Assembly: GCA_964594835.1 (NCBI GenBank)
Contig: CAZQNA010000005.1
Location: 85,419-149,418, forward strand
DNA from: an uncultured Nitrososphaerota archaeon
Lineage (GTDB): Archaea > Korarchaeota > Korarchaeia > Korarchaeales > Korarchaeaceae
Direction: 5' to 3'
DNA length: 64,000 bases
The position numbers and the translations under genes were made by a program. Below are positions 15,253 through 53,707 of the stretch, piece by piece; within the stretch, counting starts at the first letter, position 1; every line of letters begins with the position of its first letter. The notes under the pieces are model-generated. The model saw nothing but the letters and a program-made list of their open reading frames with translations, was not told the origin of the DNA and made no database searches.

Positions 15253-15694
15253 CCTCCTCCCCCCCGACGGGGAAGACAGACGCCCTGATCGCCTCGACCC
15301 CTCGGACGGAGTGCAGGGTCTTAACGAGTTCTCTGGCCTTGGAGACGGGCCCGGCCAGGATCGTCACCTCGAGGCACCTGCCGACGCTCAGGTGAACGTG
15401 CGAGGTCGACCTGATTATGTCTATGAACCTGTGCTGGATCTCGGTTATGCTCTCCGACGCCTCGTCGTGGCGGTACATCAGGGTGATCGACCCGACCACC
15501 TGGTAGTCCTCTCCACCCTCTAGGAGCCACGCCCGGTCGCCGATGTACTGGGCTATGGCCTCGCTGATGGCCTTGGACCTGCTGGGCACGTCCAACTCCT
15601 CCACGATCCTGTCCAGCTCCTTGAGCAGTCCGCTCGGGATGGATACCCCGATCCGCGTTATCTCGGTCAGACCAGACCCTCCCATCGTGCGCAC
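15233..15694 (-). CDS. nikR: Nickel-responsive regulator NikR
   Basis: RHH N-terminus (RIGVSIP..SRSKAISEAI) plus ACT-like domain with QH, HVH and CLE ligands. Confidence 0.88.
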   Translation of the reverse strand: MRTMGGSGLTEITRIGVSIPSGLLKELDRIVEELDVPSRSKAISEAIAQYIGDRAWLLEGGEDYQVVGSITLMYRHDEASESITEIQHRFIDIIRSTSHVHLSVGRCLEVTILAGPVSKARELVKTLHSVRGVEAIRASVFPVGGEEVGHTHG

Positions 15695-15727
15695 CCGCGG
15701 GAATAATTATTGAGGTTCCGGGCCCCT

Positions 15728-25747: not shown

Positions 25748-25808
25748 CTTCACGGTTCTCCCAGCGCGGCTGCCGACGGGGTTAATTAACCCTCACGGGG
25801 CAGGAGGC

Positions 25809-29613: not shown

Positions 29614-30981
29614 TCACTCCACCGTCGACAGCAGTAGCCTCCCCCTGGCGGTTATCGAGTACATCACCCTCGACCTCCCGCTCTTGGACACTGTCTGGAC
29701 CCTCGCTATGGCCCCCATCTCCTCCAGCGCCTTCAGGTGCTGGTAGACTGCTGGCAGGGAGATCTCCACGCCGGCATCCCTGAGCCTCCTCCAGATCTCG
29801 TACCCGTGAAGCCTACCCGACGTGAGCATCCTCAGTATGGCGGTCTTGGTCCTGCCGAGCGGCCGCCCCGGCCCCTCCCCCCTCACGTAGGCGTCGGCCA
29901 GGTGGAGCCTCTCCAGCTCCCTCACGGCTGCGGTCGGGTCCTTGAGGCCAGAGCCCGTCACCACCAGGACGACGGTGTCTGAGGGCGACAGCTCCCCCTC
30001 CACCCTGAGCCTCTCGGCGGCGGCGAGGGTGGAGGCGGCCGCGGGCTCGGCGAATATCCCCTCCGCCCGCGCCAGCTTCCTGGATGCCTCCAGCATCTCC
30101 TCGTCCCCCACGGTGATCAGGTCGCCCCCGCTCTCTCTAACCGCCCTCTTGGCCTGGCTCAGCCGATCCGGCTCAGGAAAGTGCAGGTCTAGGGCCACGG
30201 CGCTCTCCTCGGTGGGTCTCACTCCGTAGAGGCGCACTCCCTCCCTCTTGGTGAGTCCCAGCTCCCTCGCCTCCCCTATGCCCTTCCAGACGGCCGTCAT
30301 CAGGGAGCCGCTCCCGACCGGCAGTATCATGGCGTCTGGCTCGGACCACCCCAGCGACTCCAAGACCTCAAGGGACAGGGTCTTCTCACCCTCAACCAGG
30401 AGGGGATCCGAGTTCATGGCGGAGTAGTAGCGGGCGGGCGTTTCGAGGCGACCGTTGGGTGGGGAGACCGCCGCCCCGTAGGCGATCATCTGGTAGAGCT
30501 TCGCAGGATCGGTCGGCCCATCCACCCTGATGGCGCAGCCTATCCCGGCCCTGGCCGCGTAGGCGGCGAGGGAGGCGCCGAGGTTCCCCTTCACCTTCCC
30601 GCTCACCCCATCGTATCCCTCCTGGACGACCCTCGTGACGAGGACAGTGGAGCCCCTGTCTATGAAGCACCCCGTGGGGTTCTTCGTCTCGTCCTTCACC
30701 AGCAGCCCCTCCAGGCCCACCTCCCCTCCAAGCCTCCGACAGGCGTGGAGCCTCGTTCCCCCCTCCCCGAGCGTAATCGGGTCTCTGGACACAGGGAGCA
30801 GCTCTCTGTACCTCCACACTCCCGCGACCCTGCTGGCCAGGATCTCCGGGGTCAGCTCTCCACTCATCTCGTGGAGATCGGGAACCAGAATCAGGGGCTC
30901 ACCGCACCTCGGACAGGCGGGCTGGACCCTCTCCACCTCCCTCTCCGCCCCGCACCTGGGGCAGCGGGCCACCCATCTCAT
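29614..30981 (-). CDS. Threonine synthase-like protein (PLP lysine absent) fused to a PadR-like wHTH
   Basis: Zn-ribbon CPRC..CPRC, WRYRELLP, TLGEGGT, NPTGCFIDRG, PVGSG, AEPAAA, TGSGLKD, then HGYEIWRRL..AVYQHLKALEEMG..YSITARG. Confidence 0.85.
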   Translation of the reverse strand: MRWVARCPRCGAEREVERVQPACPRCGEPLILVPDLHEMSGELTPEILASRVAGVWRYRELLPVSRDPITLGEGGTRLHACRRLGGEVGLEGLLVKDETKNPTGCFIDRGSTVLVTRVVQEGYDGVSGKVKGNLGASLAAYAARAGIGCAIRVDGPTDPAKLYQMIAYGAAVSPPNGRLETPARYYSAMNSDPLLVEGEKTLSLEVLESLGWSEPDAMILPVGSGSLMTAVWKGIGEARELGLTKREGVRLYGVRPTEESAVALDLHFPEPDRLSQAKRAVRESGGDLITVGDEEMLEASRKLARAEGIFAEPAAASTLAAAERLRVEGELSPSDTVVLVVTGSGLKDPTAAVRELERLHLADAYVRGEGPGRPLGRTKTAILRMLTSGRLHGYEIWRRLRDAGVEISLPAVYQHLKALEEMGAIARVQTVSKSGRSRVMYSITARGRLLLSTVE

Positions 30982-31039
30982 CTCAGTTCGATACATAAGC
31001 TTACGGACTCAAATATAAGAATGCCGACTTATACATCAT

Positions 31040-35736: not shown

Positions 35737-36093
35737 TCACTTGCCCGGCGGAACTGCGTGGGCCGGTATCAGGCATATGAACACCAGGTCCTCCTCCCCG
35801 TCGTTTCGGAAGGTGTGTTTAACCCCTCCTGGAATGAACAGGAACGTTCCCGGCTGGAGATCGTGCTCCTCCCCGTCTAGCGTCGCCCTCCCCCTCCCCG
35901 AGAGTATGAACACCTCGTGCTCCCACTCGTGAGAGTGAGGTGGAGCCTCGCCCCCGGGGACCATTCGGAACACCCTCATGGCGAAGTTCGGGGCCCCGTC
36001 GCCGGGGGTTATGAGCCACCTCCTGTAGAGTCCCCTGGCGGACGTGACCTCCTCCTCCGGCACCTTTCGCCAGTCTCCGACCTTTGGTCTCAC
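35737..36093 (-). CDS. Cupin_2 protein
   Basis: APNFAMRVF, PHSHEWEHE, IPGGVKH. Confidence 0.85.
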   Translation of the reverse strand: MRPKVGDWRKVPEEEVTSARGLYRRWLITPGDGAPNFAMRVFRMVPGGEAPPHSHEWEHEVFILSGRGRATLDGEEHDLQPGTFLFIPGGVKHTFRNDGEEDLVFICLIPAHAVPPGK

Positions 36094-36096
36094 GGA

Positions 36097-36549
36097 TCAC
36101 GCCCCCACGTAATCCAGCTCGAATTCGATTTCGACGCACCCCCTCAGAGTCCGGGTGAGGTGGCAGTACCTCTCGGCCAGGTCGGCCAGCCTCTCGGCCT
36201 TCTCTCTGGGAGGTCCTGCCACCCTCATGGTCACCCAGATCCGCGTTATCCTGAACCCTCCCCCCACCAGCTCGGTCCTCGTCTTCACCCTCACCGCCAG
36301 CTCCCTCAGCGGGAGCTCCATCTTCTTGGCGAACCAGATAGCGGTCGTGAGGATGCACCCGCTCATGCTGGCGGCGAAGAGATCGTCCGGGGACGGGGCC
36401 TCGTCCAGCCCGCCGAAGTCCTTTGCCATGTCTATCTCGAACCTGTCTCCCCGGGGGAGGGTGACTACGCCTCCCATCCGGCCGTTCCAGACGGCCTCAG
36501 CCTCGTACTCCATTGGACCCTCAGGCTTCTTTATCGACAGGGCTACCAC
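36097..36549 (-). CDS. OsmC/Ohr family protein
   Basis: DFGG..PSPDDLFAASMSGC, AERYCHL. Confidence 0.85.
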   Translation of the reverse strand: MVALSIKKPEGPMEYEAEAVWNGRMGGVVTLPRGDRFEIDMAKDFGGLDEAPSPDDLFAASMSGCILTTAIWFAKKMELPLRELAVRVKTRTELVGGGFRITRIWVTMRVAGPPREKAERLADLAERYCHLTRTLRGCVEIEFELDYVGA

Positions 36550-36611
36550 CCACCGGCTCCCCCTCTCCAGAAACTTAAAGAGTGTGCATGCCCTTTAGGG
36601 CGATCGCATCC

Positions 36612-37091
36612 ATGTCGTCCATGGAGATCCTCGTGGTTCTGGATGCTGACTGCTCCTCCTCGGAGGAGGTAATACGTCTGCTGGGGAAGATGCTGGAGGA
36701 GAGAGGTTACGTCAAGAGCACGTTCGTCGGGGCAACCCTGGAGAGGGAGAAGAGCGTTCCCACCGGACTCGAACTAGCCGGGGGAGTCAACGCGGCACTC
36801 CCTCACGCCGGGGTTGAGCACGTCAACCGGCCGGCCCTGGCCGTGGCCAGGCTGAGGAGGTCCGTGACCTTCCGCAGGATGGACGATCCGGAGTCCGAGG
36901 TCTCCGTCAGGCTCGTGTTCATGCCGGCCATCAAGGAACCGAGCTCCTACATCAAGACCCTGATGAGGCTAGTCGACGTCTTCAAGGACCCGGAGGTGAT
37001 GTCGGCCCTGATGAGGGCCCGCACCGAACAGGAAGTCGTTGAGATCCTGAGGGAGAGGCTCTCGGCCCCTGAGGGCTCGGGGGAGCCTTAG
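36612..37091 (+). CDS. gatA: PTS enzyme IIA (Fru/Mtl/Gat-type)
   Basis: REKSVPTGL, ALPHA (phospho-His), FRRMDDP. Confidence 0.88.
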   Translation: MSSMEILVVLDADCSSSEEVIRLLGKMLEERGYVKSTFVGATLEREKSVPTGLELAGGVNAALPHAGVEHVNRPALAVARLRRSVTFRRMDDPESEVSVRLVFMPAIKEPSSYIKTLMRLVDVFKDPEVMSALMRARTEQEVVEILRERLSAPEGSGEP

Positions 37092-37104
37092 AAAGGTTAT
37101 TAAG
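37091..37104 (+). promoter_or_regulatory. BRE/TATA box upstream of IIB
   Basis: GAAAGGTTATTAAG about 35 nt before ATG37139. Confidence 0.6.
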
Positions 37105-37138
37105 TATGATAGTCTGTTGGTGGGAGCTGGGGGAGCCC

Positions 37139-37465
37139 ATGACCGCGAAGCCCCGTGACGTCAAGATCCTGGTCGCCTGCGGGACCGCTATTGCGACCGC
37201 CACGGTCGTGGCGGGCAAGATCAAGCAGGCCTTCGAGAAGCTGAAGATCCCGGTCACGATAGTGCAGTGCAAGGCGTCGGAGGTCCAGGGCAAGATAGAG
37301 GTCTTCGACCCGGACGTCATAGTCGCCAACACACCGATCTCTGAGAAGGCGGCCAGGGGCAAGCCCGTGATCAACGGGGTACCCTTCCTCACCGGGATAG
37401 GGGAGAAGGAGGCTCTGAAGAAGATATTCGAGGCCGTGGGGATAGCCCCTCCGGCCGACCTGTGA
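37139..37465 (+). CDS. gatB: PTS enzyme IIB (galactitol family)
   Basis: ILVACGTAIATAT (phospho-Cys loop), PVINGVPFLTGIG. Confidence 0.9.
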   Translation: MTAKPRDVKILVACGTAIATATVVAGKIKQAFEKLKIPVTIVQCKASEVQGKIEVFDPDVIVANTPISEKAARGKPVINGVPFLTGIGEKEALKKIFEAVGIAPPADL

Positions 37466-37638
37466 AATTTTTTACGAAATTAGAGCGACCCTTGAGGCCA
37501 GCCCGCTTCTTTTCGGCTTCAGAGCGGACAGTTGGCTCAGGAGGCTCCTTTTCTCTGGAGTAACAATCGCTAACTTTATTAGTAAGAGTCGAAGTCGTGG
37601 TAGTCAGCCGTCGAGCGCAGACGGCTGGTGAGTGGAAG

Positions 37639-38907
37639 ATGGACATCGTTGGAGCAGTCCAGTGGTTTCTGGGGCTGGGTGCCACGGTAGCCATACCAAT
37701 AATCCTGTTCATAGTGGGCTTGGCCTTCAAGATACCCGCAAGTAAGGCGTTCAGGGCGGCGCTGACGATCGCCTGCGGCTTCGTGGGCATAAACCTGGTG
37801 ATAGGCCTGCTGTGGGGGACCATGAGCGACGTGGCCCAGGCGATGGTGCAGAGGACCGGGATCGAGCTGACCGTCATCGACGTGGGCTGGCCGGCCGCGG
37901 CCGCTATCGCCTGGGGCACGATCGTGGGCGCCCTCACGATCCCGATAGACTTCATCATCAACATCATCATGCTGGCCCTTGGCCTCACGAAGACCATGGA
38001 CATCGACTTCTGGAACTACTGGCACTTCGCGTTCACAGGGTCCCTGGTCACTATGGCAACCGATAGCGTTCCCCTCGGGCTGATCGCATCCGCAATCAAC
38101 GCGATAATAGTGTTCAAGCTCGGAGACTGGACGGCAGAGGGAGTGCAGGAGATGCTCGGGATCCCGGGCATATCGCTGCCACACGGCTTCTCCGCTGCGT
38201 ACGTCCCCATAGGCATCCCGATCAAGAAGGCGATCGACGCCATACCACCCCTGCGGGATGTCAGGGCTGATCCAGAGGCCATCCGGGAGAGGCTGGGCGT
38301 CCTGGGGGAGCCGATGGTCATAGGCTTCATAATAGGCATCCTCCTGGCCATCGCGGCCGGGCAGGACATCGCGGGCATCCTGAACACGGGCGTGACCCTG
38401 GCCGGCGTCATGTACCTCATGCCAAAGGTTGTAGCCATACTGATGGAGGGGCTGGTCCCGATATCGGAGGCTGGCAAGAAGATCCTGGAGGAGAAGTACG
38501 GCGGGAGAGAGATGTACATCGGTCTGGACTCTGCGATCGCCATCGGTCACCCGACCGCCATAGCCGCGGCCCTGATACTGGTCCCGATAACGATAGGCCT
38601 CGCGTTCGTGCTGCCGGGCAACAAGTTCCTGCCCCTCGCCGACCTGGCCGTCCTGCCCTTCATGGTCTGCATGCTCGTGCCGATCGTGAAGGGCAACGTG
38701 GTCCACACGGTCATCATAGGGGCGATCGTGCTCATCCCGGCCATGTACATAGGCACCTTCCTGGCGCCGTACGTCACGCAGGCCGCCATAACCGCGGGCT
38801 TCGAGGCCCCTGAGGGGGCTACCCTGATCTCCAGCATCTGCGATGGTACCAACCCGCTGACCTTCGTCCTCTTCCTGCCGTTCTACCTCCTGTTCGGGAA
38901 GAAGTGA
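37639..38907 (+). CDS. gatC: PTS enzyme IIC (galactitol family permease)
   Basis: GFVGINL, IDVGWP, DIDFWNYWHFAFTG, LMEGLVPISE, IGLDSAIAIGHP, LPGNKFLPLADL. Confidence 0.93.
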   Translation: MDIVGAVQWFLGLGATVAIPIILFIVGLAFKIPASKAFRAALTIACGFVGINLVIGLLWGTMSDVAQAMVQRTGIELTVIDVGWPAAAAIAWGTIVGALTIPIDFIINIIMLALGLTKTMDIDFWNYWHFAFTGSLVTMATDSVPLGLIASAINAIIVFKLGDWTAEGVQEMLGIPGISLPHGFSAAYVPIGIPIKKAIDAIPPLRDVRADPEAIRERLGVLGEPMVIGFIIGILLAIAAGQDIAGILNTGVTLAGVMYLMPKVVAILMEGLVPISEAGKKILEEKYGGREMYIGLDSAIAIGHPTAIAAALILVPITIGLAFVLPGNKFLPLADLAVLPFMVCMLVPIVKGNVVHTVIIGAIVLIPAMYIGTFLAPYVTQAAITAGFEAPEGATLISSICDGTNPLTFVLFLPFYLLFGKK

Positions 38908-38923
38908 GAGCGGGCCACCCCAG

Positions 38924-38942
38924 CCCTCTTCCCCTCTTTTTA
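38924..38942 (+). terminator. Pyrimidine/oligo-T terminator after gatC
   Basis: CCCTCTTCCCCTCTTTTTA 16 nt after the stop codon. Confidence 0.45.
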
Positions 38943-38991
38943 TTGCGGGCCGGCTTTCTCCCAGGGTCTGGTCGGAAGGAGGGACTCCACG

Positions 38992-39480
38992 TTGGACGAG
39001 TCGAATGGAGGCAGGGCCGTCCTCCTCTCTTACAAGAGGGAGATCGCGGTAACCTTGGTAGTTCTGGTGCTGGCTGTCATGTGGCTCCACTCGGCCTTCA
39101 GCGTTCACTCAAACCTTAGGCTCGTGTACGCCCAGCCCTACGTCAGCGGAAACTTCACCGGCCTCGCGCTGAACTTCACGCTGAAGAACGACGGATTCTA
39201 CCCGCTCTTCGTCTCCGCGGGAATGAGCCTGAGAGACCCGGAGACGGGGGAGGTGATCGAGAACTTCTCCGCTTCACTGGGACTGGTCAAGGGTCGCAGC
39301 GACGGCTACAGGGTTCTGCTGCTCCCGCTGCCGCCCCAAACGATCGAGCAACTCCCTCCGAGGCTCGAGGTCGACATGGTTGGCTACTACGAGGCCAAGC
39401 TGTTCTGGCTGCCGGGCATTCGCGTGCCTCTCCACAAGGAACTCGTCGCTCCCGTGCTGAACGAGACGTGGAAGGGGTGA
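38992..39480 (+). CDS. Hypothetical single-TM exported protein
   Basis: N-terminal TM followed by a beta-rich domain with NFT/NFS sequons. Confidence 0.6.
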   Translation: MDESNGGRAVLLSYKREIAVTLVVLVLAVMWLHSAFSVHSNLRLVYAQPYVSGNFTGLALNFTLKNDGFYPLFVSAGMSLRDPETGEVIENFSASLGLVKGRSDGYRVLLLPLPPQTIEQLPPRLEVDMVGYYEAKLFWLPGIRVPLHKELVAPVLNETWKG

Positions 39481-39527
39481 CAGAACATCTTCCAGATAGA
39501 AACGCCAAAAAGACTCGGGGGAGGAGC

Positions 39528-40670
39528 TTAAGCCAGCTCCTCCGGGTTCTCCAAGAGTTCAACCACCCGCCTCAGGAACCTGGCGGCGGGTACGCCGTCC
39601 ACGACCCTGTGGTCGAAGACCAGGCAGAGGGCCATAAGGGGCCTGACCTCGATCTCCCCCTCGGCTGCGACCGGAGTCTTGGTGATCGCGCCCACGCCGA
39701 GTATGGCGGACTGCGGCGGATTGATGATCGGCGTGAAGATCTCCACCCCCTCGGAGCCCAGGTTCGAGACCGTGAAGGTGCTCCCGGAGACGTCCCTGGG
39801 GCTTAGCCCCTCCTCGCTCCGAGCCTTGCTCGCCAGCTCCTCTATCTCCCTGGTTATCTGCATCAGGTCCTTCTTGTCGGCGTCTCGGACGACGGGCACC
39901 ACGAGCCCGTCGGGGATGCTCACCGCGACGCCCACGTTGATCTCGTCGTAAACGACTATCTTGTCCCCTACAACGCTCGAGTTGAGTTCCCTATGCTCCT
40001 CGAGGGCCTTGGCTACCGCCTTCACCACGAGGGCCGTTATTGAGAACTTCCTCCCCTCGGCAGCTTCGCGCCTCCTGAGCTCCAGGGCCCTGGACATGTC
40101 CGCCCTCATGACTATCGTGACGCTCGGTATCTCCCTGTGGCTCTCCGTCAGCCTCCTGGCTATCGTTCCCCTCTTTCCAGTCAGCTCGATCTCCCTCAGG
40201 ACTCTAGGCCCCTCCTCGCCAAGCTCGGCCCTGGGGCCGGCGGATTCCACGTACCTGAGGACGTCCTCCCTGGTTATCCTCCCGCCGGGGCCCGTGCCCC
40301 GCACCTCCCTGAGGTCGACGCCGTACTCCCTGGCCAGTCGCCTGGCGGCCGGGCTGGCCCTAACCTCGACCGTCCCGCTGGGGGCCTCCCGCCTGTACTC
40401 CTCCTCCGCCGAGATCTGCTCCCCGGGGGCCGCGACGACCGCCAAGACTGTCAGCACGGGAACCTCCTCGCCCTCCTGAACGAGGATCTTGGCGAGCACT
40501 CCGTCGGCCGGCGACTCGATCGGGAAGGTGGTCTTCTCCCCCTCTGCGGTGGCTATCTCCTCGCCCTTCTTGACCGGCTCGCCCTCCCTCTTCAGCCACT
40601 TGATCAGCTTGCCCGTCTTCATTCCGGGGTCGAGGCGGGGCATCACGACCTTCCACGGCATCGCTATCAT
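39528..40670 (-). CDS. Dihydrolipoamide acyltransferase (E2)
   Basis: Lipoyl domain (EGEKTT), PSBD ASPAARRLA..GTGPGGRITREDV, TFTVSNLG, DHRVVDG. Confidence 0.93.
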   Translation of the reverse strand: MIAMPWKVVMPRLDPGMKTGKLIKWLKREGEPVKKGEEIATAEGEKTTFPIESPADGVLAKILVQEGEEVPVLTVLAVVAAPGEQISAEEEYRREAPSGTVEVRASPAARRLAREYGVDLREVRGTGPGGRITREDVLRYVESAGPRAELGEEGPRVLREIELTGKRGTIARRLTESHREIPSVTIVMRADMSRALELRRREAAEGRKFSITALVVKAVAKALEEHRELNSSVVGDKIVVYDEINVGVAVSIPDGLVVPVVRDADKKDLMQITREIEELASKARSEEGLSPRDVSGSTFTVSNLGSEGVEIFTPIINPPQSAILGVGAITKTPVAAEGEIEVRPLMALCLVFDHRVVDGVPAARFLRRVVELLENPEELA

Positions 40671-40679
40671 CCCGACTGG

Positions 40680-41687
40680 CTACACTATGCCCTCCACCGC
40701 CTCGACTATGTCCTTTGCCCAGCGCATGTACCGCTTCTCGAGCGAGGGGGAGAACGGGATGGGCATGTCGGGCGACGCCACCCTCACGATCGGGGCGTCC
40801 AGGTAGTCGAAGGCCCCCTCGACGATGGTGGCCGCCAGCTCGGCGGTGACGCCGCCGGTCTTGCAGTCGTCCGCCGCCACGACGGCCCTCCCCGTCTTCT
40901 TCACGGATTCCACTATCGTCTTCCTGTCCAGGGGGTTGAGGGTCCTTGGATCGATCACCTCCGCGCTTATCCCCTTCTTCTCGAGCTCCTCGGCGGCCTT
41001 CAGGGCCTCGTGAACCATCCTGGACACCGCCACGATGGTGACGTCGCTTCCCTCCCTCTTCACGTCCGCCACGCCCAGGGGGACCTCGTAGGGCTCCTCC
41101 GGCACGGGGCCCTTCACCCCGTAGTAGAGAACTGCGCACTCGATGAACAGCACGGGGTTGTCGTCCCTTATCGAGCTGATGATGAGCCCCTTCGCGTCGT
41201 AGGGTGTCGAGGGGGTCACCACCTTCAGCCCGGGGACGTTCATGTACCAGGCCGGGAAGAAGTTTGAGTGCTGGGCCGCGTGCGCCCTCCCCAGGCTGTA
41301 CTGGGTCCTCACCACCATCGGCACCTTGAGCTTGCCGCCCGATGAGAACCTCATCTTGGCCGCCTGGATGACCAGCTGCTCGGTCGCTATCGGCAGGAAG
41401 TCCATGTACATGATCTCGGCCACGGGCCTCAGCCCCATTATCGCCGCCCCTATGGCCGCCCCCACGATGGCGATCTCGGATATGGGGGTGTCCCTCACCC
41501 TCTCCGGGCCGAACTCCTCCAGGAGCCCCTTGGTTACCTTGAACGCCCCGCCGTACGCTCCTATGTCCTCGCCCAGGAGGACGACGCTCTCGTCCCTCTG
41601 CATCTCCTGCCTGAGTCCCTCCCTTATGGCCTCCGCGTAGGTGAGAACTCGCTCCTCGCCGCCGCTCAAGCGTAGATCACCTCCCAC
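40680..41687 (-). CDS. 2-oxoacid/acetoin dehydrogenase-like E1 beta subunit
   Basis: LGEDIG, DTPISE, GLRPVAEIMY.DF, AQHS, AEVIDPRTL, LDAPI. Confidence 0.93.
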   Translation of the reverse strand: MGGDLRLSGGEERVLTYAEAIREGLRQEMQRDESVVLLGEDIGAYGGAFKVTKGLLEEFGPERVRDTPISEIAIVGAAIGAAIMGLRPVAEIMYMDFLPIATEQLVIQAAKMRFSSGGKLKVPMVVRTQYSLGRAHAAQHSNFFPAWYMNVPGLKVVTPSTPYDAKGLIISSIRDDNPVLFIECAVLYYGVKGPVPEEPYEVPLGVADVKREGSDVTIVAVSRMVHEALKAAEELEKKGISAEVIDPRTLNPLDRKTIVESVKKTGRAVVAADDCKTGGVTAELAATIVEGAFDYLDAPIVRVASPDMPIPFSPSLEKRYMRWAKDIVEAVEGIV

Positions 41688-42694
41688 AGCCTCTCAAATT
41701 CCAGGACCTCGCTCTCATCGGCGAACCTAACGGCCTCCTCGATCTCCCTGGCCACCTCCTCCCTGATTCCCCTTAGAACCTCCTCAGTGGCGATCCCTGC
41801 CTCCACGAGCTTCCTCTCGAACCTCGGCAGGGGGTCCCTCTTCTCCCACTCCTCGACCTCCTCCTTCGGCCTGTAGGTCGCCTTGTCGTACACCCCGTGC
41901 CCCTTGAGCCTGTACGTGATGAACTCGATCAGGGTAGGGCCGTCCCCCCGAAGCGCCCTGTCCGCGGCCTCTTTCGTGGCCTTGTAGACGCTCAGAACGT
42001 CGTTCCCGTCGACCACCACGCCCGGCATCCCGTAAGAGACGGCCCTCAGGGCGATTCTCCCGCACGTCACGGACCTGCTCGCCGGCATTGACATCCCCCA
42101 CTGGTTGTTCTCGCAGGCGAAGATCACCGGGAGCTTCCAGAAGGACGCGAGGTTCAGCCCCTCGTGGAACGCGCCGGTGTTCGCGGCCCCGTCGCTGAAG
42201 AACCCGACGACCACCTTCCCCTCTCCCCTGTACTTGATGGCCAGCGCCGCCCCGGCCGCTATGGGGATGCCGCTGCCGACTATGGCGGAGGCCCAGAGCC
42301 CACCCCTCTCGGGGTCTATGGCGACGTGCATGGAACCGCCGAGCCCCCTGACGACGCCGGTCTTCTTCCCGAACAGCTCCGCCATCACCTCCCTGGCCGG
42401 AATCCCGATCGCGAGGGCGTGGCCGTGTCCCCTGTGGTGGCTCACTACGTACCCGAAGCCCTCTATGGCCCGGGCCACGCCCACCGCGATCGCCTCCTCT
42501 CCAGTGTAGAGGTGAGCCGTCCCCTGAATCCTCGCCTCGTAGAGATAGAGCTGCTCAACTCGTCCCTCAAAGAAACGAAGCTCCACTAGTTTTCTGTACA
42601 TCTCAAGGAGGTCTTCCCTCGTCAATCCGAGGGAGAGGGCCTCTTGGACGGAGACCCCCCTGACCTCCTCCACCTCCACCTCCAGCTTCCCCAA
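41666..42694 (-). CDS. 2-oxoacid/acetoin dehydrogenase-like E1 alpha subunit
   Basis: HLYTGEEA, HHRGHGH, GGSMH, SDGAANTG..ENN TPP motif, TYRLKGH. Confidence 0.93.
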   Translation of the reverse strand: MGKLEVEVEEVRGVSVQEALSLGLTREDLLEMYRKLVELRFFEGRVEQLYLYEARIQGTAHLYTGEEAIAVGVARAIEGFGYVVSHHRGHGHALAIGIPAREVMAELFGKKTGVVRGLGGSMHVAIDPERGGLWASAIVGSGIPIAAGAALAIKYRGEGKVVVGFFSDGAANTGAFHEGLNLASFWKLPVIFACENNQWGMSMPASRSVTCGRIALRAVSYGMPGVVVDGNDVLSVYKATKEAADRALRGDGPTLIEFITYRLKGHGVYDKATYRPKEEVEEWEKRDPLPRFERKLVEAGIATEEVLRGIREEVAREIEEAVRFADESEVLEFERLWEVIYA

Positions 42695-42727
42695 TGTCGA
42701 AGCACCGCTGAAAGGGATAGGACAATC

Positions 42728-43411
42728 TTATAGTTTTTGATGATGGTGGTGACCCGCCTCCGCGCACCTTCTCAGCTCTCTCGCCGAGTTCGCGGGATCT
42801 CCCCGGCCGAAGATGGCCGAGCCGGCTATTATGACGCTCGCACCCGCCTCGATGACTCTCTCAATGGTGCCGCAGTTTATCCCCCCGTCAACGGCTATCG
42901 GGATGTCCAGGCCCCTCTCCCTCAGCACCTCTCTCAGCCGCGAGATCTTTCCCAGCGTGCCCTCTAGGAACCTCTGCCCACCGAACCCCGGCTCGACCGT
43001 CATCACAAGGACGATGTCCACCTCGCCAAGCACCTCCTCAAGCGAGGTCAGCGGCGTCCCCGGGTTTATTGCCAGGCCGACCTCGACCCCCGAGGACCTC
43101 AGCGAGCCACAGAGGGAGAAAGGCCTCTTGGATGCCTCCACGTGGAAGTAGATCACGTCGGAGCCCGCCTCCGCGAACCTCTCCGCGTACCTCTCCGGGG
43201 CATCTATCATGAGGTGGGCCTCGATTGGAAGGTCCGTGGCCCTCCTCAGGGCCCTGACCACGGGGAGCCCGAACGAGAGATTCGGAACGAAGTGACCGTC
43301 CATCACATCAACGTGGATCGAGTCGACGCCCCCTTCCCTGGCGCGGACAACCTCCTCACCGAGCCTGGAGAGGTCTGCCGAGAGTATGGAGGCCGAGAGG
43401 CGGATCGTCAT
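42728..43411 (-). CDS. rpe: Ribulose-phosphate 3-epimerase family
   Basis: SILSAD, HVDVMDGHFVPN, AHLMI, MTVEPGFGGQ, VDGGI, AGSAIF. Confidence 0.93.
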   Translation of the reverse strand: MTIRLSASILSADLSRLGEEVVRAREGGVDSIHVDVMDGHFVPNLSFGLPVVRALRRATDLPIEAHLMIDAPERYAERFAEAGSDVIYFHVEASKRPFSLCGSLRSSGVEVGLAINPGTPLTSLEEVLGEVDIVLVMTVEPGFGGQRFLEGTLGKISRLREVLRERGLDIPIAVDGGINCGTIERVIEAGASVIIAGSAIFGRGDPANSARELRRCAEAGHHHHQKL

Positions 43412-43435
43412 CCGCCCATCTAGGCTTTAGACAAG

Positions 43436-43443
43436 TATTTAAG
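43436..43443. promoter_or_regulatory. TATA box in the divergent rpe/ptsH promoter
   Basis: TATTTAAG, the main AT-rich element in the short gap between the divergent genes. Confidence 0.55.
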
Positions 43444-43479
43444 GATCCTATCCCTTTGGAGCGGCTTCGGATGAGTTCA

Positions 43480-43755
43480 ATGGCCCACGCGGAGGCGAGG
43501 GTTCAGCTGAGGAACAGAGTGGGACTCCACGCCCGACCAGCGTCTCTCTTCGTGCAGACGGCAAGGAGATTCAGCTCCAAGATTGTCGTTAGAAAGGATG
43601 ATAAGGAAGCCGACGCCAAAAGCATCCTCGGAGTGCTCTCCCTGGGCGCCGAGTGCGGCCACTGGATAACGATCGTGGCCGAGGGAGACGACGCCGAGGA
43701 GGCCGTCCAGACGCTGGCGTCCCTCGTCGAGAGCCGATTTGGGGAGGCTGAGTGA
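43480..43755 (+). CDS. ptsH: Phosphocarrier HPr
   Basis: GLHARPA (His15), ADAKSILGVLSL (Ser46). Confidence 0.95.
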   Translation: MAHAEARVQLRNRVGLHARPASLFVQTARRFSSKIVVRKDDKEADAKSILGVLSLGAECGHWITIVAEGDDAEEAVQTLASLVESRFGEAE

Positions 43756-45502
43756 CTTGCGGGCCGGCCCCCGGGAGTTCAGGGGCATACCCGCCTCACC
43801 GGGAGTCGCTGTCGGGAGGGCTTACCTGTACGTTCGGGGCTACGTAGAGGTCGAGAAGAGGAAGCTTAGCGAGGACGAGGTCGAAGGAGAGATACTGAGA
43901 TTTGAGAGCGCCGTCACGCTCTCTAAGGGATACCTGAAGAGGCTGTATGAGAGGGTAAAGGCGGAGGTGGGCGAGGAGGAGGCGAAGATCTACGAGGCGC
44001 ACCTGATGATCCTGGAAGACGAGGCCTCCTTCCTGAAGCCCGTGGAGGTCATGATAAGGGAGCAGATGGTCAACGCCGAGTACGCCGTCGAGACCGTGCT
44101 CGAGAGGGTCGCCAAGCTCTTCGAGGAGATGGAGAGCCAGTACATGAGGGAGAGGGCGGCCGACGTGAGGGACGTGAAGAGGCTTGTCCTGACGGCCCTC
44201 AAGGGGAAGATAAACGAGATCTCGGCGCCTCCGGAGGAGTCGGTCATAGTGGCCCACGAGCTGCTGCCGAGCGACGTCGCCACCCTCGACAAGTCCAAGG
44301 TCCTGGGCTTTGCCACGGACACGGGAGGCCCCACATCCCACGTCGCGATAGTTGCGAGGACCCTCGGCATACCGGCGGTGGTGGGGCTCAAGGACCTCTC
44401 GGTCCACGTGAGGACCGGAGATCAGGTCGTGGTGGACGGGGACCAGGGGCTCGTGATAGTCAGGCCAGACAGGGAGACCCTCAAGACCTACAGGATCAGG
44501 ATGTCCGAGCAGATCCGAGAGAAGATGGCCCTCATGAAGTACGCGACCCTGCCAGCCGAGACGAGGGACGGCTTCAGGATAGGCGTGTTCGCCAACGTCG
44601 GGGGAGTGGAGGACCTGGAGCAAGCCCTCACGATGGGGGCCGAGGGTATAGGCCTGCTGAGGACGGAGTTCATGTACGTCAACTCCCCGAGGTTCCCCAC
44701 GGAGGATGAGCTCTACTCGAGCCTCAGGAGGTTCGTGGAGAGGATGGGGGAGAGGCCGGTGATAGTCAGGACCCTCGACATGGGCGCCGACAAGCCGCTC
44801 CCCTACTTTTCCATGCCCCCTGAGCCCAACCCCATGCTCGGCTGGAGGGGGGTGAGGGTCACCCTAGACAGGCCGGAGATCCTCATGACTCAGGTGAAGG
44901 CCGCCCTGAGGGCGGCTGTCCACGGGAACCTGTGGATAATGTTCCCGATGATCTCCACTGTCGAGGAGGTCAGGAGGGCGAGGGAGCTGATTCACGACGC
45001 CGCCTCCCAGCTGAGGAAGGAGGGGAAGGAGCACAGGGATGAGGTGAAGGTGGGGGTGATGATTGAGACCCCCTCCGCCGTGTTCCTGGCCAGAGACCTG
45101 GCCAGGGAGGTTGACTTCTTCAGTATAGGGACCAACGACCTCACCCAGTACGTCATGGCGGCCGACAGGACGAACGAGCTCGTGGCCGACCTCTACAACC
45201 ACCTCCAGCCCTCCGTGATCAGGGCCGTCAGCCGGGTTGTGCAGGCCGCGAGGGAGGTGGAGATCCACGTGGGAATGTGCGGGGAGATGGGCGGGGACGA
45301 GCTTGCCATCCCCCTGCTAGTCGGAATGGGACTGGACGAGATCAGCATGGCCCCGGCCTCAATCCCCAGGGCCAAAAGGTTGGTGAGATCGATAACTAGG
45401 GAGTCGGCCGAGACCCTCTTGGAGGAGGTCCTGAGGGCGAGCACGCTCGGCGAGGTTAGGGAGATCCTGGAGTCGTACGCGAGGTCAATCTCATACGACT
45501 AG
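43739..45502 (+). CDS. ptsI: PTS enzyme I (PEP-protein phosphotransferase)
   Basis: GIPASPG, GGPTSHVAI (phospho-His), GIGLLRTEF, RTLDMGADK, MIETP, FSIGTNDLTQY, MCGE; the start may be TTG43757. Confidence 0.95.
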   Translation: MGRLSDLRAGPREFRGIPASPGVAVGRAYLYVRGYVEVEKRKLSEDEVEGEILRFESAVTLSKGYLKRLYERVKAEVGEEEAKIYEAHLMILEDEASFLKPVEVMIREQMVNAEYAVETVLERVAKLFEEMESQYMRERAADVRDVKRLVLTALKGKINEISAPPEESVIVAHELLPSDVATLDKSKVLGFATDTGGPTSHVAIVARTLGIPAVVGLKDLSVHVRTGDQVVVDGDQGLVIVRPDRETLKTYRIRMSEQIREKMALMKYATLPAETRDGFRIGVFANVGGVEDLEQALTMGAEGIGLLRTEFMYVNSPRFPTEDELYSSLRRFVERMGERPVIVRTLDMGADKPLPYFSMPPEPNPMLGWRGVRVTLDRPEILMTQVKAALRAAVHGNLWIMFPMISTVEEVRRARELIHDAASQLRKEGKEHRDEVKVGVMIETPSAVFLARDLAREVDFFSIGTNDLTQYVMAADRTNELVADLYNHLQPSVIRAVSRVVQAAREVEIHVGMCGEMGGDELAIPLLVGMGLDEISMAPASIPRAKRLVRSITRESAETLLEEVLRASTLGEVREILESYARSISYD

Positions 45503-45576
45503 CCCCCGGGCTATGCCAGCCCCTCTCTCACTGAGCTTTATTTAGGAGAGCCGTCGGTCCCTTGCCCTGATCCCCG

Positions 45577-46785
45577 ATGGCCAGGGTAGTCGTCGAGAGA
45601 TCGGCCCGCGTCCCCATGGACGACCAGCCAATCGAGATCGTCGAGAGGAAGGGGATAGGACACCCGGACACGATGTCGGATGCGATAATGGAGAGGGTCT
45701 CGCTGGAGCTCAATCGAGAGTACCTCCGGAGGTTCGGCGGGATCCTGCACTACAACGCGGACAAGTCCCTCCTTGCGGCGGGCGTCACGGAGCCCGCCTT
45801 CGGCGGCGGAAGGGTCGTGAAGCCCATGCTCATAGTGTTCGGGGACAGGGCCACCAACGTCTTCGCTGGCGAGGAGATACCGATAGAGGAGATCGTGGTC
45901 AGGGCCGCCAAGAGCTGGATAAGGGAGAACTTGAGGTTCGTCGATCCGGAGGAGCACGTGAAGTATCAGGTTGAGCTCAAGCCCGGGAGCGCCGAGCTCA
46001 CCGACATCTTCCGGAGGGGGGAGTCGAACCTGGGGGCCAATGACACCTCGGCCGCGGTGGGATACGCGCCCCTATCCAAGACTGAGAGGGCGGTCTTGGA
46101 GATAGAGAAGTTCCTTAACTCCCCGGAGTTCAAGAAGAGCCACCCTGAGACGGGCGAGGACATCAAGGTGATGGGCTACAGGGTTGAGGACAGGCTGGAC
46201 ATCACGGTGGCCCTCGCCTTCGTGGACAGGTTCGTCTCGAGCGAGTCTGAGTACTTCCGGATGAAGGAGGAGGTGTTGGAGGAGCTCAGGGCATTCGTGA
46301 ACGAGAGGTGGGACTTCCGGGAGATAAACATAGCGATTAACACCCTCGACCAGCCGGGGAGGGGGGTGGACGGGGTCTACCTGACCGTCCTGGGGACCAG
46401 CGCCGAGGGCGGCGACTCCGGCCAGGTTGGCAGGGGGAACGGCGTCAACGGGGTCATCCCGCTGATGAGGCCCAGGAGCAGCGAGGCCGCGGCTGGCAAG
46501 AACCCCGTCAGCCACGTGGGGAAGATCTACAACGTCCTCACTCACCACATCGCCCGCAGAATACACCAGGAGGTCTCGGGCGTCAGGGAGGCGTACGTGT
46601 GGCTCCTCAGCAAGATAGGATACCCGATAAGCGACCCCGAGCTGGCGGCGGCGGAGGTGACCGTGGAGCCGGGGCTCTCCCTCGACGACGTCAGGCCGTC
46701 GATTGAGGAGGTCATGAGGAGGGAGCTGGAGGACATCTCCAGCTTCGTGGACAGGCTGATAGAGGGCGAGATCCCCACCTACTGA
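45577..46785 (+). CDS. mat: Archaeal S-adenosylmethionine synthetase
   Basis: EIVERKGIGHPDT, HYNADK, ANDTS, GEDIKVMG, GDSGQVGRGN, GKNPVSHVGKIYN. Confidence 0.95.
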   Translation: MARVVVERSARVPMDDQPIEIVERKGIGHPDTMSDAIMERVSLELNREYLRRFGGILHYNADKSLLAAGVTEPAFGGGRVVKPMLIVFGDRATNVFAGEEIPIEEIVVRAAKSWIRENLRFVDPEEHVKYQVELKPGSAELTDIFRRGESNLGANDTSAAVGYAPLSKTERAVLEIEKFLNSPEFKKSHPETGEDIKVMGYRVEDRLDITVALAFVDRFVSSESEYFRMKEEVLEELRAFVNERWDFREINIAINTLDQPGRGVDGVYLTVLGTSAEGGDSGQVGRGNGVNGVIPLMRPRSSEAAAGKNPVSHVGKIYNVLTHHIARRIHQEVSGVREAYVWLLSKIGYPISDPELAAAEVTVEPGLSLDDVRPSIEEVMRRELEDISSFVDRLIEGEIPTY

Positions 46786-51377: not shown

Positions 51378-51594
51378 TAGATCACCTCGCGGTCCCTCGC
51401 CGACACGAGGGTATTTAAGTTATTCTCAGCCCTGCAGGGGCCTCGGGGGGCCCTCAGCACCATCCGAACGGTTCAGATCCCAGTTCAGCCTGATCCGGGT
51501 GGGTTGGGGGGCCCGTCGGGGGAGGAGATTAGTCCCCGCTCTACTGTGTCAACGTTTTTTACGTCCCGGGGGCGGGTCGCGGGGGTGTCCCCGA

Positions 51595-52176
51595 ATGCTC
51601 GAAATCAGGTGGCACGGCCGGGGGGGCCAGGGCGTCTGGAGCGCCTCTGCGGTCCTGGCCTCTGCGGCCATAGGCACGGGGAAGTACGCGCAGTCCTTCC
51701 CACAGTTCGGACCGGAGAGGACCGGCGCGCCCGTCTTGGCCTTCAACAGAATCGACGAAAGGCCCATAGTCGTCCACTCCATGATCTACGAGCCAGACGT
51801 TGTTGTCGTCATAGACAGGACCCTCCTCTCAGACAGGGACGCGATCTTGGGTGGCCTCAGGCCCGGGGGGCACCTCATCGCGGACACAGACGAGTCCCCT
51901 GAGGCCCTGAGGTCCAGGCTCAACGTTCCCGACAGCATCCACGTGTGGACCATGGATGCCGTGTCCCTCGCCCTCGACGAGATAGGCAGGGCCGTGACCA
52001 ACACCCCGATGCTCGGGGCCGTGATCAAGGCCACGGGGGTCGTACCTCTGGAGGCGGTCGAGGGGTCGATCCGGGAGAGGTGGAAGGGAGAGATAGGGGA
52101 GAAGAACGTCAAGGCTGTGAGGAGGGCGTTCAGCGAGGTGGCCCACTCCCCGGCTAAGGCGGAGGTGACCGCTTGA
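51595..52176 (+). CDS. porG: Pyruvate/2-oxoacid:ferredoxin oxidoreductase gamma subunit
   Basis: EIRWHGRGGQG, SFPQFGPERTGAP, NTPMLGA. Confidence 0.92.
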   Translation: MLEIRWHGRGGQGVWSASAVLASAAIGTGKYAQSFPQFGPERTGAPVLAFNRIDERPIVVHSMIYEPDVVVVIDRTLLSDRDAILGGLRPGGHLIADTDESPEALRSRLNVPDSIHVWTMDAVSLALDEIGRAVTNTPMLGAVIKATGVVPLEAVEGSIRERWKGEIGEKNVKAVRRAFSEVAHSPAKAEVTA

Positions 52177-52448
52177 TGTCTGCTCTGAAGGGTTGGAGGG
52201 AGATTCCCATAGGAGGGGTTCCGTTCGAGCCGGCGGCCAAGTACAAGACCGGCGACTGGAGGGTCTTCAAGCCCGTCATCGACAACGAGAAGTGCATCAA
52301 GTGCGGCCTGTGCTGGGTGTTCTGCCCGGACAGCTCCATAGTCTGGGACGGAGACGGCTTCCCCACGGTTGACTACGAGCACTGCAAGGGCTGCGGGATC
52401 TGCGCGCACGAGTGCCCGACCAAGGCCATCGAGATGGTTAGGGGATGA
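52173..52448 (+). CDS. porD: POR delta subunit (2x 4Fe-4S)
   Basis: KTGDWR, CIKCGLCWVFCP, CKGCGICAHECP. Confidence 0.93.
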   Translation: MMSALKGWREIPIGGVPFEPAAKYKTGDWRVFKPVIDNEKCIKCGLCWVFCPDSSIVWDGDGFPTVDYEHCKGCGICAHECPTKAIEMVRG

Positions 52449-53704
52449 TCGTCGGGGTGAGCGAGATGGCCAAGTCCATCCAGCAGAGGATGATGTCCCT
52501 CAATGGGGATGAGGCGGTTGCCTGGGCGGCTAGGCAGAGCAACGTCGACGTCGTGGCCGCCTTCCCGATAACCCCCCAGACGATAATCATGGAGAGGATA
52601 GCCGAGTTCATCCACGACGGTCTGATGGACTCCGAGATAATCAGGGTCGAGAGCGAGCACAGCGCCCTGAGCGCCTCCTGGGGCGCCTCGGTCGCCGGGG
52701 CGAGGGCATTCACGGCCACGGCCGCCAACGGCCTGGCCCTCATGTGGGAGATCCTCTACATCGTCGCGTCCAGCAGGGCCCCGGTGGTGATGGCAGTCGT
52801 CAACAGGGCACTGAGCGCCCCCATCAACATCCACTGTGACCACAGCGACTCTATGGGAGCCAGGGACTCTGGCTGGATCCAGATCTACAGTGAGGACGCC
52901 CAGGAGGCTTACGACAACACGATCCAGGCCTTCAGGATAGCGGAGCACGAGGACGTCCAGCTCCCGGTCATGGTAATGCTGGACGGCTTCCTGATCTCCC
53001 ACACTATGCAGAACGTCCAGATCCTGCCTGAAGACGTGGTGTCGGACTTTGTGGGTTACAGGAAGCCCTCAAAGATAAGGCTGCCCGAGTTCTACGGCGA
53101 GAAGGACATCCCGTTCATGCTGAACCCCAGGTACCCGATCTCAATAGGCCCGCTGGACCTCTACGACTACTACTTCGAGCACAAGATGCAGCAGATCGAG
53201 GCCATGGGCAGGGCCCCGGAGGTGATCAAGCAGATTCACAGGGAGTTCGCCGAGATCAGCGGGAGGTCCTACGGCGACGGCCTGCTCGATCCCTACAGGG
53301 CAGACGACGCGGACGTCCTCATAATCGGGATCGGGAGCACGATGGGCACCATGAAGGCGGTCGTCGACGAGCTGAGGGAGGAGGGCAAGAGGGTCGGCTC
53401 CGTCAGGGTCAGGACCTTCAGGCCCTTCCCGGCCGACGAGATCAGGAGGTTCGCCTCGGGGGTCTCCTCCGTCGGGGTGCTGGACAGGAGCGCGAGCTTC
53501 GGCGCAGAGGGCGGCCCGCTGTTCCTGGAGGTGAGGTCGGCCCTCTACGCTCTCAGGGACAGGCCTCCGGTCCTGGGATACATCTACGGGCTTGGAGGAA
53601 GGGACATGCCGCCCAAGCTGCTGAAGAAGATCGCTGAGGAGGTCCTGAGCGCCAGAGAGGAGCCTGAGAGGCCCAGGATAACCTTCCCGGGGGTGAGGGA
53701 GTAG
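52445..53704 (+). CDS. porA: POR alpha subunit
   Basis: AAFPITPQT, VESEHSA, NRALSAPINIHCDH, GLGGRD. Confidence 0.93.
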   Translation: MIVGVSEMAKSIQQRMMSLNGDEAVAWAARQSNVDVVAAFPITPQTIIMERIAEFIHDGLMDSEIIRVESEHSALSASWGASVAGARAFTATAANGLALMWEILYIVASSRAPVVMAVVNRALSAPINIHCDHSDSMGARDSGWIQIYSEDAQEAYDNTIQAFRIAEHEDVQLPVMVMLDGFLISHTMQNVQILPEDVVSDFVGYRKPSKIRLPEFYGEKDIPFMLNPRYPISIGPLDLYDYYFEHKMQQIEAMGRAPEVIKQIHREFAEISGRSYGDGLLDPYRADDADVLIIGIGSTMGTMKAVVDELREEGKRVGSVRVRTFRPFPADEIRRFASGVSSVGVLDRSASFGAEGGPLFLEVRSALYALRDRPPVLGYIYGLGGRDMPPKLLKKIAEEVLSAREEPERPRITFPGVRE

Positions 53705-53707
53705 GGG

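Follow-up and report, generated by a model that had tools for sequence, protein, structure and literature searches.

How does a complete phosphoenolpyruvate (PEP)-dependent phosphotransferase system (PTS) of an archaeon come to enclose a protein of the ribulose-phosphate 3-epimerase family (Rpe) together with the E1alpha, E1beta and E2 subunits of a 2-oxoacid dehydrogenase-like complex, and what could these enzymes do together? This question is raised by a stretch of 64,000 nucleotides (hereafter the window; G000:C5:85419-149418), in which a sequence-only reading had seen a putative oxidative pathway that cleaves ketose phosphates. The genome, G000, measures 1.82 Mb in 24 contigs and is 97% complete. 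Its archaeal host markers are an archaeal-type AdoMet synthetase, a four-subunit pyruvate:ferredoxin oxidoreductase (POR), a class V fructose-1,6-bisphosphatase (FBPase) and a CDP-archaeol synthase, and the DNA sequencing runs containing the window are labelled hydrothermal vent metagenome; among the runs listed, none is recorded as RNA. The locus is best explained as an accessory carbohydrate island of about 10 kb that holds the PTS, Rpe, E1alpha-beta/E2 and an OsmC-family protein with a cupin. It is possible, and tentatively put forward here, that the island forms one functional unit in which the PTS cargo would be epimerised at C3 and cleaved by an E1 resembling that of acetoin dehydrogenase (Aco), the acyl unit being passed to CoA. 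This reading builds on the gene content, co-orientation and tight spacing of the locus, on its island-wise inheritance, on a separate E1 clade and on the sugar-related neighbours of related E1s.

Genes were called by Pfam and NCBIfam profile searches in which bit scores were compared with model cut-offs, and all the genes named by the sequence-only reading were confirmed in this way. On the minus strand, rpe (42728..43411; TIGR01163, 259.7 bits, cut-off 212.6), the thiamine diphosphate (ThDP)-binding E1 alpha (41666..42694; PF00676, 290.6 bits), E1 beta (40680..41687; PF02779, Transket_pyr, and PF02780, Transketolase_C) and the E2 dihydrolipoyl acyltransferase (39528..40670; PF00198, PF02817 and PF00364 with 269, 69 and 50 bits) form a single tight run, with a gap of 33 bp between rpe and E1 alpha, an overlap of 22 bp between the two E1 genes and a gap of 9 bp between E1 beta and E2. 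As had been claimed, this run lies between the two halves of the PTS, all encoded on the plus strand. On one side are found EIIA (PTS_EIIA_2; 36582..37091; PF00359, 107.7 bits), an EIIB of the Lac/Gat type with its Cys motif present (37106..37465; PF02302, 43.2 bits) and an EIIC of the galactitol (Gat) family (37597..38907; PF03611, 282.8 bits), and on the other the HPr phosphocarrier with its His-15 context present (43456..43755; PF00381, 107.2 bits) and Enzyme I (EI; 43739..45502; TIGR01417, 616.6 bits, cut-off 341.7). The divergent arrangement of rpe and ptsH was also confirmed. The two genes are separated by an intergenic spacer of 44 bp (43412..43455) in which one AT-rich palindromic TATTTAA element could be read about 26 bp from the rpe start; this element is a putative TATA box, and the role of the spacer as a shared archaeal promoter stays putative as well.

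Three further genes are conserved in the island. The OsmC-family thiol peroxidase (150 amino acids; 36097..36549, minus strand; PF02566, 62.4 bits, cut-off 27.5) pairs with a Cupin_2 protein at the island edge (118 amino acids; 35737..36093, minus strand; PF07883, 77.6 bits), and the same pairing was observed in the related genomes G003, G004 and G009. The third, orf162 (38992..39480, plus strand), encodes a small protein with an N-terminal membrane anchor whose copies are 40-91% identical in G001, G003, G004, G009 and G015; it has no Pfam family, and a protein atlas returned archaeal hypothetical proteins only, plus a weak LEA_2 lead. No dehydrogenase, kinase, aldolase or transketolase was found within the island, in agreement with the sequence-only reading, which had noted the lack of a polyol-phosphate dehydrogenase and of the other three, and no Transketolase_N (PF00456) match was found in the whole of G000. 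Also as described there, a full POR (gamma, delta, alpha, beta; 51499-54718) is located 6.0 kb beyond ptsI. G+C makes up about 65% of the window and falls slightly, to 61-63%, across 36-46 kb. Measured on the island itself, the values are 61-63% at 36001-46000 against 65-68% in most of the window, again a mild difference. The lower G+C of the island is compatible with acquired DNA.

Is the assembly peculiar to one genome? The search for E1alpha covered 61 genomes, and the phyletic pattern was drawn from the 36 genomes of the family, distributed over the genera g1 (5), g2 (5) and g3-g5 (26). E1alpha orthologues with 63-87% identity were found in three genomes of g1 (G001, G003, G004) and three of g2 (G005, G009, G012), none in the 21 genomes of g3, and no E1 was found in the 26 genomes of g3-g5 taken together. 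The full gene order of the window is kept in G003 and G004 as well as in G009; G001 matches it as far as its 5-kb contig extends, and in G015 the island is spread over two contigs. Between the window and G009, Rpe and E1alpha are 55-64% identical; E1beta is 80% identical in g2, and EIIC is 98.6% identical in G004. The DNA of g2 has 41-43% G+C, compared with about 65% in the window genome, and no flank gene of the window was found beside the G009 island. Since the order is kept despite 65% against 41% G+C and different flanks, the island has survived large divergence and rearranged surroundings.

The other components follow the same distribution. EI is present in four of five g1 genomes (G000 included), four of five g2 genomes and none of the 26 genomes of g3-g5; strong Rpe matches were obtained in g1 and g2 only; and island-type OsmC occurs in all five genomes of each of these two genera, with 2 weak matches among the 26 others. 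This pattern, along with the presence in G000 of one Rpe, exactly one E1_dh and no Transketolase_N, supports the view that Rpe and E1-E2 are accessory island cargo arriving with the PTS rather than housekeeping genes. The idea of a housekeeping Rpe placed there by chance was rejected on the same grounds, the gene being the only Rpe of a genome devoid of Transketolase_N and having no strong counterpart in the 26 island-less family genomes.

The identity of the E1 is central to the question. With the E1 and E2 motifs intact, E1alpha scored below the equivalog TIGR03182 of the pyruvate dehydrogenase (PDH) E1alpha (352 bits, cut-off 393.85) and failed TIGR03181 (257 bits, cut-off 411). In the same way, E2, which comprises a lipoyl domain, an E3_binding domain (PSBD) and a catalytic domain with DHRxxDG, failed TIGR01349 (313 vs 445 bits) and lay below every NCBIfam E2 equivalog cut-off. 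E1alpha matched transketolase models weakly, at about 40 bits. The sequence-only reading had considered two of its motifs as atypical, namely FFSDGAANTG (SDG for GDG) and the loop GHGVYD. In a set made of the window protein and its 120 best database matches, the SDG variant was present in 12 of the 121 sequences and is lineage-specific, whereas the GHGVYD loop was shared by 106 of them and is not peculiar to the locus.

With a profile of 30 relatives, 160 loci were collected, 80 of them in species genomes and the other 80 in metagenomes. A midpoint-rooted tree of 172 E1alpha sequences was then built with the rapid method FastTree; its clades take their names from the loop motifs and the genes nearby, without reference to characterised enzymes. 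In this tree, the E1alpha of the family (7 sequences, support 100) is nested in a 32-sequence GHG[VIGA]YD clade (FastTree support 98) that stands apart from the GHSMSD (PDH-like), GHFEGD/GHHEGD (acetoin-like), GHSRxD (Bathyarchaeia) and GHS[KR]SD clades. The protein groups neither with the PDH type nor with the AcoA type, as had been anticipated from its letters. In parallel, a second, fused E1alpha-beta of about 590-690 amino acids was noticed in several family genomes (G002:C88, G003:C30, G005:C35, G009:C6 and G012:C1, corresponding to loci L019 and L025-L028); its N-terminal half is 47-49% identical to the window E1alpha, and none is present in G000.

Acetoin dehydrogenase uses ThDP to cleave the bond beside a keto group and transfers the acyl unit to CoA. 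AcoABCL resembles the island enzyme in its heterotetramer-type E1alpha-beta and lipoyl E2, which belong to one superfamily, and the cleavage chemistry proposed here would be alike. The two differ in the E1alpha clade, the window loop being GHGVYD and not GHFEGD/GHHEGD, in the AcoL/E3 subunit, which was not found in G000, and in their context, which is a PTS and Rpe instead of a butanediol dehydrogenase. One alternative is a dehydrogenase of the acetoin/2,3-butanediol type, whose substrate would be a small acyloin without a phosphate group and would have no relation to what the PTS imports. Relatives are often named pyruvate/acetoin dehydrogenase by source databases, and pairs of medium-chain dehydrogenase/reductase (MDR) proteins follow E2 in the GHGVYD clade (L042, L125, L127, L128) and in the GHSRxD clade (L046, L047, L052, L076, and one of the pair in L130), loci which we take to resemble clusters of aco with butanediol dehydrogenase genes. 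Nevertheless, this explanation appears very unlikely for the window, where the island contains no MDR dehydrogenase, where E1alpha stands outside the clade in which 5 loci carry an adjacent E3, and where E1-E2 is inherited island-wise with the PTS and Rpe.

What do related E1s have as neighbours in other genomes? In support of the sequence-only reading, the GHGVYD clade and a neighbouring clade recur in sugar-kinase, polyol-dehydrogenase or PTS operons of unrelated phyla. At two loci of the GHGVYD clade, a metagenome-assembled genome of Acidobacteriota (L042) and a metagenome contig of 34% GC (L122), the kinase directly upstream of E1 passes the autoinducer-2 (AI-2) kinase (LsrK) equivalog (L042:79-1731, 680 bits; L122:1450-3012, 648 bits; cut-off 528), and close copies of this gene were observed in L044 and L198. 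XylB-type kinases occur at both L122 and L123, accompanied in L122 by DhaK/DhaL and a class II aldolase and in L123 by a sugar ABC transporter, a glycosidase and an MDR dehydrogenase.

In the GHS[KR]SD clade, a DXR-II-like reductase was found directly upstream of E1 in 25 of the 160 loci. Eight of those 25 also carry Gut-type EII genes, some with an HPr-EI fusion, and belong to Proteobacteria (Alphaproteobacteria), Chloroflexota (Caldilineaceae) and Actinomycetota (Rubrobacteraceae). The lipoyl acyltransferase of these operons is of the alpha/beta-hydrolase AcoC type in Proteobacteria. One such bacterial operon, L113:8612-20309, consists of a DXR-II-like reductase, an AcoA/AcoB-like E1, a lipoyl acyltransferase, a SorC regulator, GutM, Gut-type EII and an HPr-EI fusion; others are L057, L060, L083, L084, L103, L059 and L199, and literature searches found no characterisation of this DXR-II/E1/Gut-PTS type. 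Like the window island, the Gut-PTS operons join their own HPr-EI to an Aco-like E1alpha-beta and a lipoyl acyltransferase; they differ by the E1 clade, by the glucitol family of the PTS and by a dehydrogenase at the place where the window has an epimerase. By analogy, this joining suggests the cleavage of a phosphorylated substrate delivered by the PTS. Two other candidates were examined and put aside. A PTS-dependent dihydroxyacetone kinase behind the HPr-EI near bacterial E1s was rejected, as Gut-type EII and a DXR-II-like reductase are present there and not DhaKLM, and the Dorea locus L066, with a Gat EIIABC 8 kb from E1, was set aside because unrelated genes and a separate PRD regulator intervene.

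The Lsr pathway offers another point of comparison, as LsrK-equivalog kinases adjoin the distantly related GHGVYD-clade E1s of L042 and L122. The end products of this pathway are acetyl-CoA and a triose phosphate, and an Aco-like cleavage of a 1-deoxy-pentulose phosphate would yield products of the same type. The enzymes are distinct, LsrF being an aldolase-fold thiolase and not a ThDP/lipoate enzyme. No LsrF-type thiolase was seen among the scanned genes at L042 and L122, and in G000 no tblastn match was obtained for any of four FGGY kinases used as queries, of which two were LsrK-like, LsrF and LsrG not being among the queries. A link between the PTS and this pathway is known, in that both AI-2 uptake and LsrK interact with EI and HPr (PMC8016206).

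Because their neighbours are sugar-related, association by neighbourhood favours phosphorylated acetoin-like sugars, either methyl ketones or ketoses, as candidate substrates of these E1s. Within this range, the DXR-II and AI-2-kinase-like neighbours point to methyl-ketone (1-deoxy) substrates and acetyl-CoA, not glycolyl-CoA. For a sugar-phosphate substrate of the island E1, a 1-deoxy or methyl-ketone compound giving acetyl-CoA therefore seems more likely than xylulose 5-phosphate (Xu5P) giving glycolyl-CoA, and the glycolyl-CoA named as an example by the sequence-only reading becomes a conjecture.

Taken as one unit, the island might operate as follows. The PTS would import a ketose-like sugar and phosphorylate it with PEP as donor, and Rpe would invert its C3. 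The ThDP chemistry of E1, comparable with that of acetoin dehydrogenase, would then split the molecule between C2 and C3, beside its keto group, freeing a triose or aldose phosphate, while the two-carbon acyl unit would travel over lipoyl-E2 to CoA. ADP-forming acyl-CoA-synthetase-like paralogues could convert the acyl-CoA into ATP, and OsmC may accept part of the electrons. G000 encodes several genes like these synthetases, as well as a RuBisCO large-subunit gene beside FBPase, which we take to be of form III, so that possible onward routes may exist for both pentulose phosphates and acyl-CoAs. In this scheme, the cargo of the PTS is inferred, as is the way in which dihydrolipoamide would be oxidised again when there is no canonical E3.

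A more specific proposal, fairly unlikely as it stands, is that E1alpha-beta/E2 of the GHGVYD clade would be a CoA-linked 'ketolase' that converts a phosphorylated 1-deoxy- or normal pentulose into triose phosphate and acetyl- or glycolyl-CoA. Candidate substrates would be of the DXP-like, phospho-AI-2-like or Xu5P type. They could be furnished by the PTS and Rpe in transketolase-less vent archaea, and by LsrK- or XylB-like kinases in Bathyarchaeia and Acidobacteriota. Without a canonical E3, the electrons might pass to another lipoamide oxidoreductase or to OsmC; alternatively, the reaction could be redox-neutral, with a phosphoketolase-like chemistry in which lipoamide stays reduced.

Several observations weigh against the island as one catabolic unit, and the first concerns the electrons. 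No canonical dihydrolipoamide dehydrogenase (E3) was found in G000, in which the best TIGR01350 match reached 94 bits (cut-off 409) and no reading frame of the six contained the E3 redox motif CxxxxCxPxK. Five sibling genomes likewise stayed below the TIGR01350 cut-off, which makes six of six island genomes examined without a canonical E3. An NAD-linked oxidative cleavage would therefore be deprived of its last enzyme, and this part of the sequence-only reading is weakened. The same search does find E3 in four of five archaeal and bacterial genomes carrying clade members from outside the family, so that lack of E3 was rejected as a trait of the whole E1 clade.

The lack of E3 alone is no proof of unusual E1 chemistry. 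G000 also encodes GcvH and both GcvP subunits (contig C9:36895-37317 and 42582-45578), and as these glycine-cleavage P and H proteins occur without a canonical E3, a non-canonical enzyme must handle dihydrolipoyl proteins in this genome. Candidates for it would be a thioredoxin-reductase-like protein encoded in the window (24713-25753) and the Nox/CoADR-like proteins of contigs C4, C1 and C8 of G000. An LplA-like ligase is present in G000. It was rejected as a marker dedicated to E2, the BPL_LplA_LipB family being found in 28 of 36 family genomes and G000 having GcvH and GcvP besides.

Could OsmC take over the role of E3? Both catalytic Cys residues could be read in its sequence, and in G005 and G012 its gene follows E2 directly, downstream and in the same orientation. 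The lipoyl groups of 2-oxoacid dehydrogenase proteins serve as reductants of Ohr/OsmC enzymes (PMC5384416), and in M. tuberculosis an E1, either HoaS or AceE, can drive the AhpC/AhpD/DlaT peroxidase with no need for Lpd and NADH (PMC8811941). By analogy with these systems, OsmC may be a candidate for a partial electron outlet. Pushed further, this leads to an E3-independent antioxidant module in which E1 would reduce lipoyl-E2 and OsmC would reoxidise it, forming a substrate-driven peroxidase that is compatible with either substrate model. The occurrence of island-type OsmC in ten of ten g1 and g2 genomes, with its near absence from the other 26, suits such a module, as does the missing E3. 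We consider it quite improbable nonetheless. OsmC stands beside E1-E2 in only one of the 160 loci outside the family (L175), the shared phyletic pattern may mirror one acquisition, a flux of peroxide cannot sustain a catabolic route, and another lipoamide oxidoreductase is needed anyway for the glycine-cleavage P and H proteins.

The second difficulty for the island as one unit lies in the partners of Rpe. The window Rpe, single copy in G000, satisfies the Rpe equivalog TIGR01163 and has the plant chloroplast Rpe 1rpx as best PDB match (202 bits, full length), and it reaches neither the AlsE model (174 vs 271) nor the SgcE-type model NF005944 (110 vs 376). Membership of the PTS in the Gat family follows from EI and HPr, which pass their models (HPr with 96.2 bits against a TIGR01003 cut-off of 47.9), and from a PF03611 EIIC with EIIB and EIIA partners. 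All galactitol-specific models remained below cut-off, GatA being the best NCBIfam match of EIIA at 65.6 bits (cut-off 139) and EIIC scoring 456.5 bits with TIGR00827 (cut-off 542.2), and galactitol was therefore not assigned as the PTS substrate. By its sequence, the nearest named relative of this PTS is the cryptic sgc system of E. coli K-12 (sgcXBCQAER), all products of which are annotated as 'putative'; a literature search found nothing on its function. Both systems unite EIIA/B/C of the Gat family with an Rpe-family epimerase (SgcE), with identities of 40% between EIIC and SgcC, 36% between EIIB and SgcB and 31% between Rpe and SgcE. As for differences, sgc has no E1-E2, OsmC or HPr-EI of its own, the island has no SgcQ (BtpA) or SgcX (M42), the BtpA of G000 being on contig C3, and the epimerase of the window passes the equivalog model of genuine Rpe, not that of the SgcE type.

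In two g2 genomes, G005 and G012 (variant B), an intact E1a-E1b-E2-OsmC set lies beside HPr-EI without rpe, EIIB or EIIC. The genes around it encode BtpA, two kinases of the PfkB type, an orphan EIIA and a nickel-pincer racemase resembling LarA that scores 440.8 bits against a lactate-racemase cut-off of 460; judged by its sequence, the latter is just as compatible with a context of 2-hydroxyacids or pyruvate. In G005, G012 and G018, a second Rpe, less closely related, adjoins a second Gat EIIC away from E1. In G005, this second locus, on contig C3, has EIIA, EIIC, Rpe, M42 peptidase, BtpA and EIIB, that is the gene set of sgcXBCQAER, with an SgcX-like and an SgcQ/BtpA-like protein 38% and 44% identical to those of E. 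coli. This sgc look-alike extends over L202:7198-12746, and a RuBisCO large-subunit gene (15423-16709) is found 3 kb off. Moreover, G036, from a neighbouring family, possesses a Gat PTS and an FGGY kinase without E1-E2, and rpe was found beside an E1 in none of the 160 loci outside the family. As E1-E2 of variant B is without rpe and the second Rpe pairs with the second EIIC, the steadier partner of Rpe is the Gat permease, and the steadiest partners of E1-E2 are HPr-EI and OsmC.

The linkage of E1 to rpe and the PTS claimed from the window is kept in G001, G003, G004 and G009 and, as regards rpe, was found at none of the 160 loci outside the family. Likewise, for the proposed route through Rpe and E1/E2 to cleave a ketose phosphate, co-inheritance with the PTS was observed, whereas E1-E2 and Rpe are uncoupled in G005 and G012.

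Variant B brings to the fore the plainest rival, in which E1-E2 is an ordinary 2-oxoacid dehydrogenase, namely a pyruvate dehydrogenase merely co-regulated with the PTS. It would oxidise pyruvate, including that freed from PEP by Enzyme I, and Rpe would belong to the Gat PTS in the manner of SgcE. The PDH complex with alpha2beta2 E1, mitochondrial and alphaproteobacterial, does resemble the island enzyme. The closest PDB chain to E1alpha is the human PDH E1alpha (220 bits), E1beta passes the PDH subfamily model NF006667 (376.6 bits, cut-off 321) and E2 has the three-domain layout. The persistence of E1-E2 next to HPr-EI near a LarA-like gene in G005 and G012, the second Rpe pairing with a second EIIC elsewhere in variant B genomes, and the E. 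coli sgc genes, where a Gat PTS and an epimerase go together without any E1, all suit this view too. However, E1alpha and E2 stay below all PDH equivalog cut-offs, the GHSMSD loop is replaced and E1alpha lies outside the clade of that name, and no canonical E3 accompanies the complex. Relatives in the clade occupy sugar-kinase and polyol-dehydrogenase loci, not central metabolism, and the window E1-E2 itself sits in an accessory island and not in the core gene set. In addition, the four-subunit POR only 6 kb away already covers pyruvate oxidation, which counts in favour of the island as one unit. A plain pyruvate dehydrogenase is thus somewhat unlikely.

The last difficulty is that one ancestral event may account for the island in both g1 and g2, in which case the phyletic counts are not independent. 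In the extreme case, the genes would have no functional link at all, and their arrangement would be the frozen accident of one horizontal acquisition, all island genomes descending from it and E1-E2 standing idle for want of E3. This is hard to reconcile with three intact reading frames that share 56-93% identity across genera of very different GC, with an order kept amid scrambled flanks or with the LplA-like ligase, and we hold it to be extremely improbable.

Overall, the sequence-only reading is partly supported and, by the refuting conditions that it had set, not refuted: E1alpha stands apart from the PDH-type and acetoin-type clades, and its linkage to rpe and the PTS recurs in other genomes of the family. 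At the level of search results, literature searches found no description of the island or of the cleavage route. Elsewhere in the window, two other features were noticed, one open reading frame that runs over 3120 codons and has a GC3 of the coding type (1382-10744, plus strand) and a pyridoxal phosphate-dependent (PALP) enzyme with a C-terminal PadR-type DNA-binding domain, an unusual fusion (29614-30996, minus strand).

The pieces of the island are all of known kinds; the novelty lies in the way they are combined, in the lack of a canonical E3 and in an E1 clade of its own that is met in sugar operons. If E1-E2 is a plain pyruvate dehydrogenase, no more than an uncommon arrangement of operon genes is left of the finding. 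In 2008 the known archaeal PTSs numbered only one (PMC2405797), and with the island a small archaeal phylum that is not halophilic gains a complete system. The two lipoate-dependent systems of this archaeal family, E1-E2 and the glycine-cleavage P and H proteins, both without a canonical E3, raise the question of what replaces it. If E1-E2 acts on a sugar phosphate delivered by the PTS, it would represent a third ThDP way to cut ketose phosphates, beside transketolase and phosphoketolase, and one that would retain the two-carbon unit in the form of a CoA thioester. A function would thereby also be assigned to a widespread clade of 'pyruvate/acetoin dehydrogenases' in the sugar operons of Bathyarchaeia, Acidobacteriota and others.

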